64,000 nucleotides of DNA from Candidatus Binataceae bacterium. GTDB taxonomy: Bacteria > Desulfobacterota > Binatia > Binatales > Binataceae. The translations under genes were made by a program, and so were the position numbers. Position 1 is the stretch's first letter. Every line of letters begins with the position of its first letter. The notes under the pieces were generated by a model that saw only the letters and a list, made by a program, of their open reading frames with translations, was not told the DNA's origin and did not search any database. Location: positions 31,233 to 95,232 of the forward strand of contig CAVWAA010000003.1 of NCBI GenBank assembly GCA_963752805.1, in the 5' to 3' direction. This document shows positions 109 through 23,096 of this stretch, piece by piece.

Positions 109-1407
109 TTATGACAAATATCGATAGGCGAATTGCTCAATCGCTCGCCGGAGCGGCTCGGGTAGGTGCCTCCAGACATCGGTCAGGACGCGGCGTTTAG
201 GCGAGAGCACCTCGCTACTTGATGGGTAATGCGGCGCGATCGGAAAGAAGGCATATGGCAGGGGGCTCGAGTGGCCTCCAAGGCCACGTTTGAAACGATT
301 GAGGCCAGAGTTCCGGATATCGCTGCGGCCCAGATCCAAGCACCGAAATTTTCCTGCCCAGTGTTCGACTAACGACCAGGTCAGCAGATGACCTGCCCCT
401 GCAGTCTCATCGGAGTCACGCGCACTCCACTTGTAATGCAGCGTGTCTCCCTGGCCGAGCAAGAATACGGCGGCAACGTCGTGTTCCTGATGCGATGCCA
501 ACCAAACGTCAATTCTGTCATCGAAAAGTTGCCGTACGATATTAAAAAAGCGAAACGGCTGACATGGCAATCCTAAGCGTCGGCGTGACCGCTTGTGGAG
601 CCGGTAGAATCGCCCAACCATCTCCGGCGAGCTGCCATGGTCGATCCGAAAGGTAGATCTGCGGGCTTTGACTAGGTTGCGGCGGAAATTTGTTTCCAAC
701 CCGCGATAGAGTCCTGCTACCGAACCCGAGGTATCCAATTCCCATGAAAGAAAGTGGTCCGCGCTTTGCCATTCAGGCGGTGCACTAATGCCTCGGATCT
801 CAAATCGGTCATGGCCGAAGCACTCACTCAAACGACCGAGCAAGCTGGCCTCGGCATCCGCTTCCACCGCTAGCGGCGGGCAAGCATCTGAAAATGGTAA
901 CGATACCCACCACCGTGCAAAAGGCCGCCGCACCCGAGCAAGCAGCACGCCGGCGTCGGCAACCCCGCCCCGCTCGATAATTGCCGCTCGAAAAGCAAAA
1001 CCGTAGGTGAGGCGCAGCGCTTCAATCCATTGTTCCGAGTGATAGAGAGTGGCCTGCGGGCTCAAACGAGTGAGAGCACGCCATTGCGCGTGAACGTACT
1101 CAAGAGGCTCAAACTTGATGGTCGGTGGCTTCGCGCACGCTGAGGAATGGTTCGGCGCACGCTTGTGACGCTGCTCGAGAAAATACTCCTTGCCCCCATG
1201 ATAACAAACGCTCGTGGCCGTCCTCGACGAACCAGCAACCTTGTGCAACAGCGCCCCTCCGTTCGGGCTGAATGGTCGCGGTAAAACAAATCGGCGACTC
1301 GCCGGAGCGTAGCGGCAAACTTTATGCCGTCCATGATTTCTCTGAAATTCCACAAACGCCATGACATTCCGCCCAGCATTCCTAGCCAGCCAGAGTACTG
1401 GGCACAC
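109..1407 (-). CDS. GNAT/FemAB-like acetyltransferase (CelD/BcsL-type); true start probably downstream of 1407
   Basis: Motifs ATLYHSEQW, SLPFSD, FRRNLVKARR, LDLGRS...GLNRFKRGLG; the N-terminal ~90 aa of the ORF look non-coding. Confidence 0.75.
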   Translation of the reverse strand: MCPVLWLARNAGRNVMAFVEFQRNHGRHKVCRYAPASRRFVLPRPFSPNGGALLHKVAGSSRTATSVCYHGGKEYFLEQRHKRAPNHSSACAKPPTIKFEPLEYVHAQWRALTRLSPQATLYHSEQWIEALRLTYGFAFRAAIIERGGVADAGVLLARVRRPFARWWVSLPFSDACPPLAVEADAEASLLGRLSECFGHDRFEIRGISAPPEWQSADHFLSWELDTSGSVAGLYRGLETNFRRNLVKARRSTFRIDHGSSPEMVGRFYRLHKRSRRRLGLPCQPFRFFNIVRQLFDDRIDVWLASHQEHDVAAVFLLGQGDTLHYKWSARDSDETAGAGHLLTWSLVEHWAGKFRCLDLGRSDIRNSGLNRFKRGLGGHSSPLPYAFFPIAPHYPSSSEVLSPKRRVLTDVWRHLPEPLRRAIEQFAYRYLS

Positions 1408-14749: not shown

Positions 14750-15075
14750 CTCGGTTTGAAAGACGCGGGCCGCTGGAACGGAGGGCGGCAAACGTTTTAG
14801 TCGCGATTTTACTGGTCGCACAGTGTCTGGCCGTTGCACACTTTCACCCGAGGCAAAGCACCTCGCTGCTATTCTTCGGACGCGCGCCAGTGTGGACAGC
14901 GGCCTGTGCGCGCTTTGCTTGTTCCACCAGTATTCACCTACGCTTTCGGCGGCGGCTCCATTTCCGTTTTCGCCTACCATGATTGACCATATTGATCTTT
15001 ATGCGGCACAATCATGGCCGCTCTATGCGTTCAATTCCTACCTCTCGGGTAGATCGCCTGCCCGCTTTGGCATAA
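14743..15075 (+). CDS. DUF2946-like small membrane protein / leader ORF (two apparent indels)
   Basis: Hydrophobic helix ending AHFH, then CALC (14907-14918) in a shifted frame, then GRSP; removing G15060 gives GRSPPALA-stop at 15073-15075. Confidence 0.6.
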
Positions 15076-15200
15076 GTCTCCTGTCTCATTTCCAGCAACG
15101 ATTCAGTTCGAAACAATTTGTCCAATGCGCCCAGAAGGGCGGGCGCGCTGTTCCGTGCAGTTATCAGCGTGGGACAATTGTCGAATGCAGAGGAACGTCT

Positions 15201-17619
15201 ATGACCCGGAGGTTGATGTCTTTAGGGCTTTGCGCCCTCCAGCTTTTGCTAATCATGCCGGCGAGCGCGGCCCCGGCAAATACCGCTTCGCAGCGGGTGG
15301 GCGGGACCATTAACGACGCTCTAGGGCGGCCGGTCGATAGAGCCGAATTGATCATTCAAACTCAAGACGGACATATCATTGCTCGCGCGAGGAGCGACCG
15401 CAGCGGTCACTTCGAATTTGCAGCTATTCGGCCGGGAACATATGCCATAGTTGCTAACAAAACAGGCTTTGCTACTGCGACGTCCATCGTGACGGTGACT
15501 ACCAGCGGCGCCAAACCGGTGGATATCTCGATGGAGGCGCAGGCCGCACTCAATATGCAGGTTGTTGCCAAGCGGCTCGACGTCGCGCGCAACGGGCTGA
15601 GTCCTGAAACCGGCAGTAGCGTCTATCGGTTCAGCGAAAAGGCAATCCAGGAGTTGCCGCAGGGCACTAACACGCAGATGAGCAACGTGTTGCTGCAGGC
15701 ACCCGGGGTTGCTCAGGACTCGTATGGAGGCCTTCACATTCGAGGCGAGCACGCCGAGATCCAGTACCGGGTGAACGGTATAGAGCTGCCCGAAGGGATT
15801 AGCGCCGGATTTTCGCAAACCTTGAGCCCTCGCTTCGCCCAGAGTATCTCGCTTCTGGAAGGAGCGCTGCCCGCCCAGTATGGCTATCACACCGCCGGGG
15901 TGGTTCAGATCCAAACTAAGAGCGGTGAAAGCCTGAGTGGCGGCAATGTCGAAATGTATGGCGGCCAACGCGGCACCCTGCAGCCGAGCTTCGAGTTGGG
16001 TGGGGCGAACGGAAACTTGAGCTATTATACGACTGGCTACTATCTGCAGAATAACCGCGGCCTGGAACCGCCGACGCCCGGCCCCGAAGCGACTCATGAC
16101 TTCGCCACCATCGGTAATGACTTCGGCTATCTGTCATATTTTTTGAACCCCACGACCCGAATCAGTCTGCTCGGCGGCTTTAATCTTTCCAATTTCGAAA
16201 TCCCGGCAAATCCAGGTCAAGCCCGGCGTTCAATCTGCGGGAGTGCCTTCTCCCTCGGCAACTGCCGGCGCTCAATCCTGCTGGTGCCTAATTTCCTCGC
16301 AGACATCCGCGAGACGCAACTTGAGCAGAATTATTATGGCGTTCTCGCTTTGCAAGGGCTCGTGGGCAAGAACCTCGACTATCAGATTGCCGCCTTTAGC
16401 CGATATTCCACTCTGTCATTCCATCCTGATCAGGCTGGCGATTTGATCTACAACGGCGTTGCTTCGCGGGTTTTCCGCGGCGACTGGGCCAACGGGCTTC
16501 AGGGCGACTTCGCCGATCGAGCCTTGGCAACACATACGATTCGCGCCGGCTATTATTTCCAGGGCGAGCGCGCCGAGATTGACAATCACGCGTTGGTCTT
16601 TCCTGGAGGGCCAGGCGTACAGACCAGTGATGAACCCGAAGCTATAGTGGACAATACCGCTTTAACCGCCTGGCTCTATGGGCTTTACCTGCAGGACGAA
16701 TGGAAACCGATTTCCAAATTGACCATAAATTATGGTGTGCGCTTCGATCTTTATGACGGCTTAACTCGCGCGGATCAGGCCAGCCCTCGGGTCGGCGCGG
16801 TCTATCAGATTTTCGAAAAAACCGCCCTGCATGCGGCCTACGCGCGTTATTTCACCCCGCCGCCGCTGGAGTCGGTATCGGGAGAGAGCGTCTTTAGATT
16901 TGTGGGCACGACCAACGAACCCGCCGTGCGGACCAACTCCAACATCGCGCCCGAGCGGGCCCATTATTTCGACGCGGGAATCACGCAGAATTTCCATACG
17001 GGCTTAAGGTGGATCTCGACAGTTACTATAAGAAATCGCGCGATCTGATCGACGAGGGTCAGTTCGGGCCAACCCTGATCTTTACTCCTTTTAACTACGA
17101 CAAAGGCCGTCAGTACGGTGTCGAGTTTACGACTTCGCTCACTCGCGAAAATCTAACTGCCTATACCAACTTCGCTTACTCTGTCGCGCAAGGCATAAAC
17201 ACGTTTCGGATCAATTCCTATTTGCCGCAGATGAGTTGGCCTTTACCAGAACTCACTACATATTCCTTGATCACGATCAGACTTTCACTGCCTCCTGGGG
17301 AGTTGCTTACAACTTTGACGGGTTTTTGTTCACACTGGATGGCTTTTATGGCAGCGGCTTGCGTACGGGCTTTGCCAACACCGGCAACCAGCCCTTCTAT
17401 ATTCAGTTTGACGCAGGCGTCGCGAAAAAGTTGATGGTTCCCAAGATAGGACACATCGAGGGACGGGTCGCGGCCGTAAATCTCGGGGATTGGATCTATC
17501 AGCTTCGTAGTGGCTCAGGCGTTGGTGTGTTTGCGCCCCAATACGGACCGCGTCGCGCCGTCGAAGGTGGTCTCAAATGGTTTTTCCCGTGGTCTACAGC
17601 GAGCGCGCTGACACAATGA
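15201..17619 (+). CDS. TonB-dependent outer-membrane receptor with N-terminal carboxypeptidase-regulatory-like domain (frameshifts near 17000 and 17220)
   Basis: Signal peptide, GGTINDALGRPV, plug LLQAPGV..HIRGEH..YRVNG, YLQDEW, INYGVRFD, SPRVG; continues across three frames. Confidence 0.88.
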
Positions 17620-18785: not shown

Positions 18786-19511
18786 ATGACTCCGACGTAT
18801 CACATCGATGATCCGCGGCTGCGATTAGCCTGGGTCATCCCGTTTTCACTCATCCTATGGGCGGCCTTTCTGACGTTATTTGCATTATTGCTGGAAAGAA
18901 CCGCGCCGCCACCGCCGGAGCTGGCGCCGGCAGAAGTGCGAATCGTCGAATTGCCTCCAGGTTTACAAGGCGGTGCAAAGGTTCCACATCCTGCGGCCGC
19001 GCCTCCAAAACCCAAGGTGGAAGCGCCGAAGCCCAAGCCGCATATCAAAACCAGAAGAGCCGTGAGGGCGCATCCGGCAAAGTCAAAAGCACCCACGGCG
19101 CCGCTGCTCCCGCCCTCTGCTTCAGGAACGGCAAAAGAACCAACCGAGGTTGCTCCACCAGCCGGGTCTCCGTCTGCCAGCACTGAAGCTCCAAGTGCCG
19201 GAGCCGGGCAAGGTGCGGGAAGCGGCGCCGGAATTGGCAGTGATAGTAGCGGCGCACGAGCAATCTATGCACCGAAACCTGTCATCCCGGACAGTTTGCG
19301 TGAAGAAGCGTTCCAGACCGTAGCGGTCGCCAGGTTCAAGGTCACTTACGACGGTCAAGTACGCGTCACGCTGATAACCCCTACCGAGAGCCCTCAACTC
19401 AATGAGCTAGTGCTCGAGACGCTCAAGCAGTGGCGTTTCTTCCCGGCGATGAAATCCGGCGTCGCGATTGATTCGCAATTTGACTTGCGAATTCCAATCT
19501 CGGTGCAGTAA
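18786..19511 (+). CDS. tonB: Energy transducer TonB
   Basis: N-terminal TM helix, Pro/Lys-rich linker, C-terminal TonB domain (LKQWRFFPA). Confidence 0.88.
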   Translation: MTPTYHIDDPRLRLAWVIPFSLILWAAFLTLFALLLERTAPPPPELAPAEVRIVELPPGLQGGAKVPHPAAAPPKPKVEAPKPKPHIKTRRAVRAHPAKSKAPTAPLLPPSASGTAKEPTEVAPPAGSPSASTEAPSAGAGQGAGSGAGIGSDSSGARAIYAPKPVIPDSLREEAFQTVAVARFKVTYDGQVRVTLITPTESPQLNELVLETLKQWRFFPAMKSGVAIDSQFDLRIPISVQ

Positions 19512-19542
19512 TGCGCTAAAAGCGTACCCTCTTTCAAATCGA

Positions 19543-19893
19543 TCAGCCCAACGCTTTGCGGAGCTGGTCCCGGTCGAAGCCGGCGATTAGTTTGCGTCCG
19601 ATGACAGTCAATGGCCGCTTGATCAGGTTCGGTTCCTGCGCCATCAGCTTAAGCGCCTGCTCGGGCGTAAGTGTCTTGCCCTTCAAATTCAGCGTCTTAA
19701 AGGCGGGACTCTTCGGATTAATGTAATCGCGTGGGTCGGCCGCTTTGAACAGGTCTTTCAGTTCGGCTTCGTTGAGCGGCTGCTTGGCATAGTCCCGCTC
19801 GTCCAGTTCAACCGCCAATTCGTTACGCAAGAAACTTCTCGCATTACGGCATGTGGTTCAGGTGGATTTCCAGAGGAAACGCGCCTTCTTCAT
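19543..19893 (-). CDS. ArsC/Spx/YffB-family protein with in-frame UGA (putative selenocysteine, UxxC)
   Basis: ATG at 19893 reads MKKARFLWKST-TGA-TTCRNARSFL, in frame with the 19543-19830 ORF (ERDY..PL, EPNLIKRPL, IAGFD). Confidence 0.8.
19825..19844 (-). promoter_or_regulatory. Candidate bacterial SECIS hairpin
   Basis: mRNA AUGCGAGA-AGUU-UCUUGCGU: 8-bp stem with two GU pairs and a 4-nt loop with G in second position, 21 nt after the UGA. Confidence 0.6.
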
Positions 19894-20001
19894 TTTTTCA
19901 CCCACCGGTCAAGTGCCAAGACCTTCTGCTGCAGCCAGCCGAACCTGCGCTGAACTTGAATGAGTCGGCACGCCTTCAACGCGAAACTAACGCTGCCTCA
20001 T

Positions 20002-20667
20002 TTACTCGATGCTCGTATCCGGTAACGCTGCTCCCTTCGAGGCCGACGGACGGTTATAGCTACCGGGATTGTTGGCCCCAGCGTAGGGAGCCGGTCGCGG
20101 GCCACCGGCCGCGCCGACTCCAGGTGTGCGGACCGGACCTGCCCCGTTATCAATTGGATTAGTTGTGGGCGGAGTGTCAGCCCCCTGCCTTATCGTCGAT
20201 AAAGATGCACCCGGTGTGCTCGGTGTACCGTTTGACGATGGCAAGCTATTTCCGGCGGGTGAAGCCGGTGTTTGTCCGGTCTCACTTGGGCCACTGAAGT
20301 ATATGGGTTTCTCTCCCGTCATCATCTCAGGAGTCAGTACGTAATCGCCACCCAGCGAACTGCGCCAGATGCTGTCGGCTACCTGCTTGTTGCCGCCGGT
20401 GAGAGCATAGCCGGCTCCACCTGCGATGCCGCCCAGGATTCCATAGACGAGTTTGGCAGGAACGTAGACCAGGTTGCCTACGACCGCACCCGCCCCGGTA
20501 CCGACACCTTTCCAATTGACGCTCCCATCTGACGGCTGGGCAACCTGCGGTGCATCGGGAGACGACGGCTGCGATGAACTGCCGCTGCCCTGAGCCCAGG
20601 CGCTGGTTGTCAAACAAAACACCGTAATCGAGAGCGTCCGCACCAGCCAAGTCATCGTTCTCATCAT
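20002..20667 (-). CDS. Secreted/membrane hypothetical protein with Gly-rich helix and Pro/Ser-rich tail
   Basis: GGAGGAGG RBS, signal peptide ending SAWA, NLVYVPAKLVYGILGG segment. Confidence 0.7.
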   Translation of the reverse strand: MMRTMTWLVRTLSITVFCLTTSAWAQGSGSSSQPSSPDAPQVAQPSDGSVNWKGVGTGAGAVVGNLVYVPAKLVYGILGGIAGGAGYALTGGNKQVADSIWRSSLGGDYVLTPEMMTGEKPIYFSGPSETGQTPASPAGNSLPSSNGTPSTPGASLSTIRQGADTPPTTNPIDNGAGPVRTPGVGAAGGPRPAPYAGANNPGSYNRPSASKGAALPDTSIE

Positions 20668-20756
20668 ACCTCCTCCATCCTCCACCAAATCGCGCTGACT
20701 TCCAGCGCGCTGTTTAGACTTGTTTGTTGCCTCCGAAAACGTACCCAAGAAAGCTG

Positions 20757-21500
20757 CTATTCGACTTTGACCACAACCTCGCGCGGCAACAGTTCAATCA
20801 AATGATCAAACGCACATTCGACATATTTGCGATCCTTCGATTCAAGCGTAAGCTTGACACGATATTCGGGATTGCCAATGCGTGGGTAGGAGCCGAGCAG
20901 CACCGCCGGATACGTCCGAAGACAAGCATTGAGATATTCGGCGATGGTGCCTTCACCGGCGCTGGTATAGATCGTCCGGATGTAATATGGGTCGGTAGCA
21001 AAGCGGCCCAGCAAGGCCACCAACTTGGCCTCAAAGATTTGCGGAATACCCGGCAGAATGTAGACGTTTTCGAACTGCACCGTGGGGAAGCGCAGATCAC
21101 CGGCGGCATTCAGCACCGCGCCCTCTGGTACTTCGGCCATCTTCAGCCCGGTTGCCAAGCGCTCATTGAAGTGTAAACGAATCGCGCTCTCCAGTTCGGG
21201 ATGCATAACGATCGGCCGGCCGAACGCGAGTGCGACCGCCGCCATCGTTATGTCATCATGAGTTGGACCGACTCCGCCCGAAGTGATGACGAATTCGAAG
21301 CTGCGAGCGCAGTTAATAACCTCGTCCGCTATTGGCTGAAGTTCATCCGGAACCACGGCGATGCGCTTGAGTGCCACACCAATTTTGCGCAGTTCGCGTG
21401 CCGCGAAATAGGAATTGGTGTCATGCACTTTGCCGGACAGGATTTCGTTCCCCACTACCACCATCCCGCAATCGCGCTCCTGCTTGGCGGCGATCTCCAT
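20757..21500 (-). CDS. Molybdopterin-binding/CinA N-terminal-like protein
   Basis: VGNEILSGKVHDTN, TSGGVGPTHDDIT, LPGIP, GSYP. Confidence 0.88.
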   Translation of the reverse strand: MEIAAKQERDCGMVVVGNEILSGKVHDTNSYFAARELRKIGVALKRIAVVPDELQPIADEVINCARSFEFVITSGGVGPTHDDITMAAVALAFGRPIVMHPELESAIRLHFNERLATGLKMAEVPEGAVLNAAGDLRFPTVQFENVYILPGIPQIFEAKLVALLGRFATDPYYIRTIYTSAGEGTIAEYLNACLRTYPAVLLGSYPRIGNPEYRVKLTLESKDRKYVECAFDHLIELLPREVVVKVE

Positions 21501-21581
21501 TTTTGCGATTCTACAGCAGCCGCGCTTTGAAGCCCAGCGCTCGAACTCCTAGGCTTCCGCCATCACTCAGGTGTTCAAAAA

Positions 21582-22721
21582 TTAGCTCTCGGCCTGGTCG
21601 ATATCGGCTGCCTGGTCCTTCAGGAATTCCTTCAAGCGGCGTTTCAGTCGTGATTCGATTTGGCGGACGCGTTCGCGGCTGATGCCGAAACGGGCGCCGA
21701 CTTCCTGCAAGGTCGGAGGCTCTTCCGCGAGCAGACGAGTGCGAAAGATCTCAAGTTCCTTATCCTTGAGAGTGGCGGCGAACTGCTCGACTTTATCGTG
21801 GGCGAAATTGCGCCACTCTTCACGAGCGGCCGTCTCTTCGGGATTCCACTCTGAATCTGGGATGGCGTCGCCTAGTCGGGTGCCGTCCTCAGGACCAGCA
21901 GGAGCATCTAGCGACACTTCGCTTTGCGCCATCCGCTCCTGCATCTCGCGCACCTCGCTTTCCTTCACCCCCATCCGCTGGGCCAATAATTTCGGCTGCG
22001 CCGTGAACCCTTCAGCTTCGAGCCGCTCGCTCTCTTTGCGAAGGTTGAAGAAGAGCTTACGCTGGGCCTGAGTAGTGCCGATTTTAACCAGCCGCCAGTT
22101 GTTAATTAGATAACGGTAGATATAAGCACGCACCCACCAAACCGCATACGATGGAAAGCGAATCCCGCGATAGGGATCGAAGTTCTTCACCGCTTCCATC
22201 AGGCCGACATTGCCTTCCTGGATAAGATCCAGCAGATTGCGGGACGCTCGTGCAAACTCATTGGCGATCTTTACCACCAGGCGCAGGTTGGCAGTGACCA
22301 GCCGATAAGCGTCTTCCGGATTGCGGTACTTGTGATAACGGCGGGCAATTTCGCTTTCATCTTCCCGGCTGAGAACCGGAAATCGGCGCAGTTCTGCGAG
22401 GTAGCGGCTGAGCGGATCAACCGGAACGAGTTGCCCGCCCGCGGCCGCTTCACCGCCCGCCTGCTCGCCGTCTTCAGAGTTGGGCAATGGACTTTCTGCC
22501 GCGGCTGCGCTGAAGTCTTTGTTCCGCTCGATCAAGCTATCGGCCGGCTCAACCTCGACGGGTTCTTCCGTCGCCGACGGCTCATTGCCGGCCACGATCT
22601 CGACTTCGATTGGCTCGCCTTCAGATAGTTGTGGACCTTGTGCAATGGGACGCCTGGGCTTGCCACCGGGTTTCGGGTGGTTGCTACGCCGAACGCGGCC
22701 AGATTTACGAGGCACTGACAA
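21582..22721 (-). CDS. rpoH: RNA polymerase sigma factor, sigma-32 type
   Basis: LVTANLRLVVKIA, DLIQEGNVGLM, RpoH box VKIGTTQAQRKLFFNLR, ISRERVRQIE. Confidence 0.85.
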   Translation of the reverse strand: MSVPRKSGRVRRSNHPKPGGKPRRPIAQGPQLSEGEPIEVEIVAGNEPSATEEPVEVEPADSLIERNKDFSAAAAESPLPNSEDGEQAGGEAAAGGQLVPVDPLSRYLAELRRFPVLSREDESEIARRYHKYRNPEDAYRLVTANLRLVVKIANEFARASRNLLDLIQEGNVGLMEAVKNFDPYRGIRFPSYAVWWVRAYIYRYLINNWRLVKIGTTQAQRKLFFNLRKESERLEAEGFTAQPKLLAQRMGVKESEVREMQERMAQSEVSLDAPAGPEDGTRLGDAIPDSEWNPEETAAREEWRNFAHDKVEQFAATLKDKELEIFRTRLLAEEPPTLQEVGARFGISRERVRQIESRLKRRLKEFLKDQAADIDQAES

Positions 22722-22898: not shown

Positions 22899-23096
22899 TC
22901 AGTCCTCTCCCGGTTCGACCAGTGTAACTTTGCCGGCGGCGATCTCGCGCAAGGCCGTTACAACTTCCTTGTTATCGGATTCGACCAAAGGACGCGCCCC
23001 CTTTAGAAGTTGTTTGGCACGGCGTGCCGCACCCAAAACCAGCTCGAAACGATTCGGAATGACTTCGAGGCAATCTTCGACAGTAATTCGCGCCAT
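22899..23096 (-). CDS. rpoZ: RNA polymerase omega subunit
   Basis: [37 protein letters not shown]. Confidence 0.96.

Follow-up and report, generated by a model that had tools for sequence, protein, structure and literature searches.

Is an in-frame TGA close to the beginning of a bacterial gene a stop codon, or is it read as selenocysteine (Sec, U)? This question is raised by a locus of a Candidatus Binataceae bacterium (Desulfobacterota; Binatia; Binatales), located in contig CAVWAA010000003.1 of the assembly GCA_963752805.1. The window, i.e., the whole stretch of DNA that was analyzed, covers 64,000 nucleotides (nt) of this contig (positions 31,233 to 95,232 of the forward strand), and the coordinates given below are counted from its first letter. 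An original prediction, made from the letters of the window, had proposed that a gene on its minus strand encodes an ArsC/Spx-family selenoprotein with a UxxC motif and that a selenocysteine insertion sequence (SECIS)-like hairpin follows the UGA. We followed up this proposal by comparative analysis, RNA folding, family searches, and structure modeling. The sequence evidence indicates, with a probability that we put at roughly 93%, that the UGA at 19860-19858 is decoded as selenocysteine and that the gene is intact and encodes an ArsC-fold selenoprotein close to Spx/MgsR.

Reading frame of the gene

The minus-strand frame opens with an ATG at 19893-19891, runs through eleven codons (MKKARFLWKST) to the TGA, and continues with TTCRNARSFL, exactly where the original prediction had placed these elements. 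It terminates at a second TGA, 19545-19543, giving a protein of 116 residues whose residue 12 is UGA-encoded (U12) (Table 1). With genetic code table 11, the sole open reading frame (ORF) listed here is one of 95 amino acids (aa) at 19543-19830, which starts from a TTG at 19830. It had been proposed that standard gene callers miss a recoded 116-aa protein, and a search of a collection of 5.8 billion proteins agreed with this. The Sec forms of the family are present there as 95-aa entries with 80-81% query coverage, annotated as 'hypothetical protein' or as 'arsenate reductase-like glutaredoxin family protein'. Entries of Cys forms are 115-117 aa long and carry the names 'ArsC/Spx/MgsR family protein' or 'Spx/MgsR family transcriptional regulator'.

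Selenocysteine and cysteine forms of the family

When 41 related genomes were searched in six frames, 21 full-length orthologues were obtained. Exactly one in-frame TGA, located at codon 12, was present in 15 of them, and the other six, one of which is from an unpublished genome (G019), had a Cys codon and no TGA. The translated Sec forms read WKST-U-TTCR and the Cys forms WKST-C-(S/T)TCR, the N-terminal residues being kept across the TGA. A separate scan of public genomes gave 80 loci, nearly all of them in metagenome-assembled genomes (MAGs) titled Candidatus Binataceae, Candidatus Binatus, or 'delta proteobacterium'. Codon 12 was TGA in 54 and TGC or TGT in 26 of these loci, and the UGA was aligned with the Cys of the orthologues, as expected from its proposed position at the first Cys of the CxxC motif of Spx/YffB proteins.

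We then asked how the codons ahead of the UGA vary. In the 54 Sec forms, the site variability of the nine codons upstream of the UGA was 0.138, 0.062, and 0.294 at codon positions 1, 2, and 3, and the equivalent nine codons of the Cys forms showed the same pattern (0.137, 0.107, and 0.342). The 5' untranslated region, used as a control, had a variability of 0.58-0.63 and no phase. Because variation before the UGA is biased to third positions and that of the 5' untranslated region is unphased, translation covers the codons ahead of the UGA. The Sec forms among the relatives keep both the TGA and its upstream codons. Furthermore, UGA has not been globally reassigned, since the terminal stop of this very gene is TGA in 7 of the 21 orthologues, including the window gene.

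When the Sec and Cys states were mapped by parsimony on a tree of 79 rows, the resolution of which was poor, nine changes were needed, and at least two were forced by well-supported branches. The genomes with Cys forms also carry Sec machinery, indicating that Sec and Cys interchange within a Sec-using lineage.

Three loci of this set deserve separate mention. The orthologue of genome G011 (L041/L045, G011:C9:314606-314945) was found as two overlapping matching pieces with no TGA, suggestive of either a Cys form with a frameshift or a faulty assembly. A Sec-form locus, L122 (DASQHV010000127.1), is 64% identical and belongs to a MAG that carries the title Candidatus Acidiferrales instead of Binataceae, which could be due to mis-binning or transfer. 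Finally, two near-identical Sec-form copies, L112 and L113, are present on two contigs of one MAG (CAVZFW01), representing either a duplication or redundant contigs.

The hairpin downstream of the UGA

The original prediction included a hairpin with an AGUU loop 21 nt past the UGA. Folding reproduced it, and comparisons showed it to be specific to the Sec forms. Its upper stem is formed by AUGCGAGA (19844-19837) and UCUUGCGU (19832-19825), which enclose the apical loop AGUU (19836-19833). The spacing between the UGA and the loop is exactly 21 nt, so that the loop begins at nt 22 past the UGA. In the minimum free energy (MFE) structure, three pairs of a lower stem (CGU/ACG) follow beyond a 1x1 A/A internal loop, by which the hairpin reaches 19848-19821. 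According to the Figure 7 legend of PMC2398784, bacterial SECIS elements have a conserved guanosine in the apical loop; the present hairpin fits this description, lying directly 3' of the UGA with a G early in the loop.

We judged the hairpin to be above chance because of comparative evidence from the Sec and Cys forms. RNAalifold gave a consensus hairpin at the same columns in the 15 Sec forms and no such consensus hairpin in the six Cys forms. Of the cells that should be paired in the consensus structure, 86/90 were paired in the Sec forms versus 25/36 in the Cys forms, where pair 25-34 was broken in all six. Similarly, the energy of the 24-nt hairpin averaged -10.2 kcal/mol (range -14.2 to -9.0) in 52 Sec forms and -6.75 kcal/mol (range -10.3 to -1.2) in 26 Cys forms. 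Some Sec lineages use an alternative stem, GCGCGGG/CCUGCGC, in which the pairing is preserved.

The clearest RNA-level signal is the choice of codons in the stem. Arg19 is written AGA in 46/54 Sec forms and 5/26 Cys forms, although this codon makes up 3.4% of the Arg codons of the genome. The same holds for Leu22, for which TTG (16% of Leu codons) is used in 46/54 and 6/26, and for Ala18, for which GCA (15% of Ala codons) is used in 45/54 and 6/26, respectively. Only in the genes that encode Sec, then, is this peptide written in rare codons. Taken together, the hairpin is kept in the Sec forms and visibly decays in the Cys forms after the loss of Sec.

Selenocysteine machinery

The original prediction also implied that the organism has Sec machinery, and this stood in part. 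The MAG to which the window belongs (the home MAG) consists of 34 contigs and is 69.9% complete. It contains an intact selA (526 bits, 494 aa) with its N-terminal domain, while selB, selD, and tRNA-Sec were seen in genomes of the same genus or family. Each of three same-genus genomes has selA, selB, and selD, and among genomes of the family these genes were found in 24/24, 23/24, and 24/24, respectively. A tRNA-Sec with the anticodon TCA was present in four (G001, G002, G007, and G009) of five genomes checked; in the fifth, G003, the search gave a match at the level of tRNA-Ser only.

The home MAG has a second gene with an in-frame TGA, L142 (G000:C19, about 1054-1251, minus strand). Its product is SelW/Rdx-like (53.9 bits with PF10262) and contains the motif C-E-V-U (CxxU), and a 9-bp hairpin lies past its UGA. 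Formate dehydrogenase was also considered as a second selenoprotein marker of the home genome, but the TIGR01553 matches, none of which contained an in-frame TGA, scored far under the cut-off, making this marker uninformative. In the relatives, selD itself mostly has one in-frame TGA (e.g., L052-L055), i.e., it encodes a Sec-containing SelD, and a minority lack it.

Proposed decoding and points that weigh against it

In bacterial Sec decoding, a SECIS hairpin and SelB deliver the Sec-charged tRNA to a UGA, and in thioredoxin-fold CxxC proteins the first Cys is the attacking residue; the scheme proposed here draws on this established knowledge. The UGA at 19860-19858 would escape termination with the help of the hairpin 19848-19821, which starts 11 nt downstream and most likely acts as a bacterial SECIS. 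While the ribosome sits at the UGA, the hairpin would recruit SelB-GTP-Sec-tRNA(Sec), and selenocysteine would be inserted. Sec12, which caps helix 1 at its N-terminal end, would be the attacking residue in place of the attacking Cys of CxxC proteins and would most likely form a reversible selenenylsulfide with Cys15, so that the protein would serve as a selenol/thiol redox switch or oxidoreductase. In this scheme, selenium incorporation, SelB binding, the selenenylsulfide chemistry, and the existence of a physiological partner are what we infer.

Several observations weigh against decoding as Sec. Three components of the machinery gave negative results in the home MAG: no selB match reached the cut-off, the best one covering model positions 2-303 of 581 with 190.9 versus 242 bits; no selD match reached its cut-off; and none of 32 tRNAs detected by ARAGORN was tRNA-Sec. 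An RF01852 match of 50.3 bits in this MAG was rejected, as ARAGORN identified it as tRNA-Ser(TGA). Because the MAG is only 69.9% complete, these results are weak evidence of absence, and the missing genes probably reflect its incompleteness. As for the hairpin, by itself it stands out only moderately (z = -2.62; MFE -21.1 kcal/mol, and 4 of 200 shuffles fold equally well), and some Cys forms retain a fairly stable one, down to -10.3 kcal/mol. Fixed-register covariation is modest, a double change being found in one of six pairs, where the one-base-shifted stem of some lineages cannot be scored in an ungapped alignment. In addition, the conserved peptide NARSFLR constrains much of the stem as well. 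The gene is covered by contigs from RNA libraries, yet these do not prove transcription. Overall, the case for a selenoprotein is built on sequence evidence, and Sec insertion at this UGA is predicted.

Protein family and possible function

To place the protein, U was replaced by C in the family and structure searches. Membership in the ArsC/Spx family, as originally proposed, was supported by Pfam ArsC (PF03960), which was matched with 60.7 bits against a gathering threshold of 24. The best NCBIfam model was that of Spx/MgsR, TIGR01617, which was matched by 20/20 family members at E <= 1e-5, although the score of 71.7-71.8 bits was under the cut-off of 75.05. Scores further below their cut-offs were obtained with the Spx models NF002459 (55 versus 123 bits) and NF009210 (34 versus 159) and the YffB model NF008107 (30.9 versus 121). 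A profile of 20 orthologues compared with solved structures hit Spx first (3l78, E 2.7e-20; 1z3e, E 2.2e-18), followed by YffB (E 2.4e-12).

We also built an AlphaFold2 model from the orthologue alignment (mean predicted local distance difference test score 91.1). Residue 12 lies between a strand (residues 3-8) and a helix (13-25), which is the CxxC position of the thioredoxin fold. Foldseek placed Spx 1z3e first with a template modeling (TM) score of 0.86, followed by YffB (0.85) and ArsC (0.80), and because these values are close, the fold alone does not select a subfamily. In the profile alignment, U12, C15, and R93 correspond to C10, C13, and R92 of Spx, and K61 corresponds to R60. Considering these data, we filed the protein as an Spx/MgsR-like ArsC-fold selenoprotein.

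Is it, then, a true Spx-type regulator? Such a role would be compatible with Sec insertion, and there may be a link between its regulon and the RpoH-like sigma factor, the gene of which lies two genes upstream. The nearest solved relatives by both sequence and fold are Spx proteins of Firmicutes, and the equivalents of the CxxC position, R/K60, and R92 match. Passages of PMC2801614 describe C10 and C13 of Spx as a redox switch and R60 and R92 as basic residues near DNA. The gene also lies on the same strand as, and downstream of, an RpoH-like sigma factor gene (53/80 loci) and rpoZ (36/80). On the other hand, Spx G52, which is absolutely required for contacting RNA polymerase at the C-terminal domain of its alpha subunit (PMC2801614, in the same passages), faces a nearly invariant Asp53, with slight doubt about the register because of a neighboring two-residue indel; residues 51 and 52 of the window protein are both Ala. 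Moreover, the protein ends at residue 116, whereas Spx chains have 131-132 aa, so that it lacks the C-terminal tail corresponding to Spx residues about 116-131. It differs further in having Sec for Cys10, in scoring under the cut-offs of TIGR01617 and NF002459, and in coming from a Gram-negative-type phylum. The synteny is limited to one bacterial family and is lost in G034, and YffB and ArsC fit the fold almost as well as Spx. Binding to RNA polymerase would therefore be a minority possibility in our judgment of the sequences, and a true Spx-type regulator is rather improbable. More doubtful still is the full picture of a Sec-containing Spx-type sensor, which would bind RNA polymerase by way of a U12-C15 selenenylsulfide switch and, jointly with the RpoH-like sigma factor, would adjust a stress regulon.

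YffB (PA3664, 1rw1) and other short ArsC-family reductases are in the same length class (114-120 aa) as the window protein and share its fold, while the sequence match to YffB is weaker than that to Spx. We take YffB to have a single Cys instead of CxxC.

A glutaredoxin-coupled arsenate reductase, that is, ArsC proper with Sec in place of the catalytic Cys12, is very unlikely. It would be in line with the Pfam ArsC match and with the labels from the Jgi source, which read 'arsenate reductase-like', and an arsenate-reductase selenoprotein family with UxxS does appear in the tables of PMC2398784 and the list of PMC13188914. That family, however, is listed as UxxS (PMC2398784), whereas the motif here is UxxC. 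The ArsC arsenate reductase model TIGR00014 gave 41.4 bits against a cut-off of 106.05, and ArsC structures were matched with an E value of about 4e-9 (E. coli ArsC) versus 2.7e-20 for Spx. Furthermore, no ars gene was found among the six neighbors with a Pfam match, namely those for ExbB, ExbD, TonB, the CinA-N-like protein, the RpoH-like sigma factor, and rpoZ; the seventh neighbor has no family match.

Genuine stop or sequencing error

If the TGA were a genuine stop, the real product would be the 95-aa protein from TTG 19830, or the gene would be a decaying pseudogene, and the upstream codons would be an untranslated leader. Table-11 calling yields exactly this ORF, many database entries have this length, and the negative results for selB, selD, and tRNA-Sec in the home MAG would be expected. 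The conservation described above speaks against it: the 11 upstream codons and UxxC are retained in 54 Sec forms with third-position-biased variation, and the upstream residues align one-to-one with full-length Cys forms. In the AlphaFold2 model, a 95-aa product would lose the active-site motif together with strand 1 and a portion of helix 1, and its TTG start lies inside an arm of the hairpin. The TGA has also persisted in 54 species-level genomes. We thus regard termination at this codon as very unlikely.

One base separates TGA from TGC or TGT and Cys-form relatives exist, but the idea that the codon is a sequencing or assembly error is effectively refuted by the TGA at the equivalent codon in 54/80 independent assemblies, by its presence in contigs from four independent runs, and by its coupling to the Sec-specific codons of the hairpin. 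These contigs, two of the runs being of DNA and two of RNA libraries, keep the TGA: they showed no listed difference within 19815-19902, in a comparison that consists of the rows listed, with seven lower-support rows outside it. The RNA-library contigs (X5 and X7) are those of relatives 90-99% alike and are silent on transcription, its ends, and its level.

Genomic neighborhood

The features of the locus are collected in Table 1. The conserved upstream block (20002..22721) is context and stands outside the recoding device.

Table 1. Features of the selenoprotein locus and of the genes upstream of it (window coordinates)
Feature	Position	Strand	Evidence or remark
Predicted full coding sequence (CDS), 116-residue Spx/ArsC-fold selenoprotein	19543..19893	-	Frame; Pfam ArsC; full-length orthologues of 115-119 aa; AlphaFold2 model
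In-frame TGA, predicted U12, first position of U-T-T-C	19858..19860	-	TGA/Cys alignment of orthologues; unchanged in contigs of four runs
TGC, Cys15, putative resolving Cys of UxxC	19849..19851	-	Invariant in 20/20 aligned orthologues; aligned with Spx C13
SECIS-like hairpin	19821..19848	-	MFE structure; Sec-form consensus; hairpin energies; rare codons
TTG used by gene callers as false start of the shortened 95-aa ORF	19828..19830	-	Within the 3' arm of the hairpin
Gly/Ser/Pro-rich ORF, 248 aa	20002-20748	-	No Pfam/NCBIfam match; directly upstream of the selenoprotein gene
MoCF_biosynth/FLAD1_M CinA-N-like gene	20757-21500	-	Family search
RpoH-like sigma factor	21582-22721	-	NF005143, 271 bits versus cut-off of 241
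rpoZ	22899-23096	-	Family search

Within 3-kb flanks of the 80 loci, the Gly/Ser/Pro-rich ORF was found in 79 and the CinA-N-like gene in 78, in addition to the sigma factor gene and rpoZ at the frequencies given above. The downstream ExbB-ExbD-TonB genes were conserved in only one of the 80 loci. In G034, a genome of another family, the distant Sec homologue is not flanked by this upstream gene order. The synteny with rpoH and rpoZ, conserved within Binataceae only, was accordingly treated as weak functional evidence. Scans of 19350-20150 gave a single sigma-70-like promoter site, which overlaps the start codon, and one terminator-like site, which lies inside the CDS on the opposite strand; neither was used.

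Two further observations were made in the window. The RpoH-like sigma factor has an N-terminal extension of ~100 residues ahead of region 1.2. At 14823-17619 on the plus strand, a TonB-dependent-receptor-like frame is split into overlapping ORFs (14823-17048, 17009-17434, and 17236-17619), which suggests frameshifts or assembly errors.

Relation to known selenoproteins and significance

ArsC-like selenoproteins with UxxC are a kind already known. For Desulfotalea psychrophila, 'ArsC-like' selenoproteins are given in the tables of PMC1794560, which also name a 'distant ArsC homolog' for Desulfuromonas acetoxidans, and the tables of PMC2398784 (Zhang & Gladyshev) list a UxxC selenoprotein family as 'Arsenate reductase 2' (cd03032). 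Two reviews (PMC9312934 and PMC13188914) have in their lists an 'arsenate reductase' (UxxS) and an 'arsenate reductase-like protein' (UxxC, NF041106). 'Arsenate reductase 2' and the 'ArsC-like' proteins share with the window protein the thioredoxin fold of the ArsC superfamily, Sec as the first residue of UxxC, Cys homologues, and a SECIS hairpin right past the UGA, and both they and the window protein are computational predictions only. They differ in origin, which is marine metagenomes, Desulfotalea, and Desulfuromonas, whereas the window clade consists of soil Candidatus Binataceae; the comparison is one by description only.

The model NF041106 (ArsC_rel_Se_1), titled 'ArsC family (seleno)protein', represents the same UxxC architecture at a similar length (a 107-position profile). 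The Binataceae clade is a different lineage outside the annotation reach of this model, because the window protein scored 27.2 bits, where the cut-off is 85, and only 3/20 members matched at E <= 1e-5. As for cd03032, we assume it to be an Spx-like model of CDD.

Spx is not mentioned among the literature matches listed for selenocysteine, selenoprotein, or UxxC, a statement that extends to those matches alone. If the doubtful Sec-containing Spx-type sensor were real, it would be a transcription regulator that is itself a selenoprotein, and the chemistry of its switch would have been retuned repeatedly, given the at least two and up to about nine Sec/Cys changes in one family.

Turning to the preferred reading, the range of known selenoprotein kinds is unchanged by this gene. 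The kind has been listed since 2006-2008 in the tables cited above, and the window gene is mainly an annotation fix. The Binataceae are frequent in soil metagenomes, and their database records of this gene hold a 95-aa fragment devoid of the active site; a dedicated model would fix many of these records. Furthermore, with 54 Sec and 26 Cys loci, this family offers a natural series of Sec/Cys interchange, which would be useful for studying how a SECIS element is kept up inside a coding sequence.

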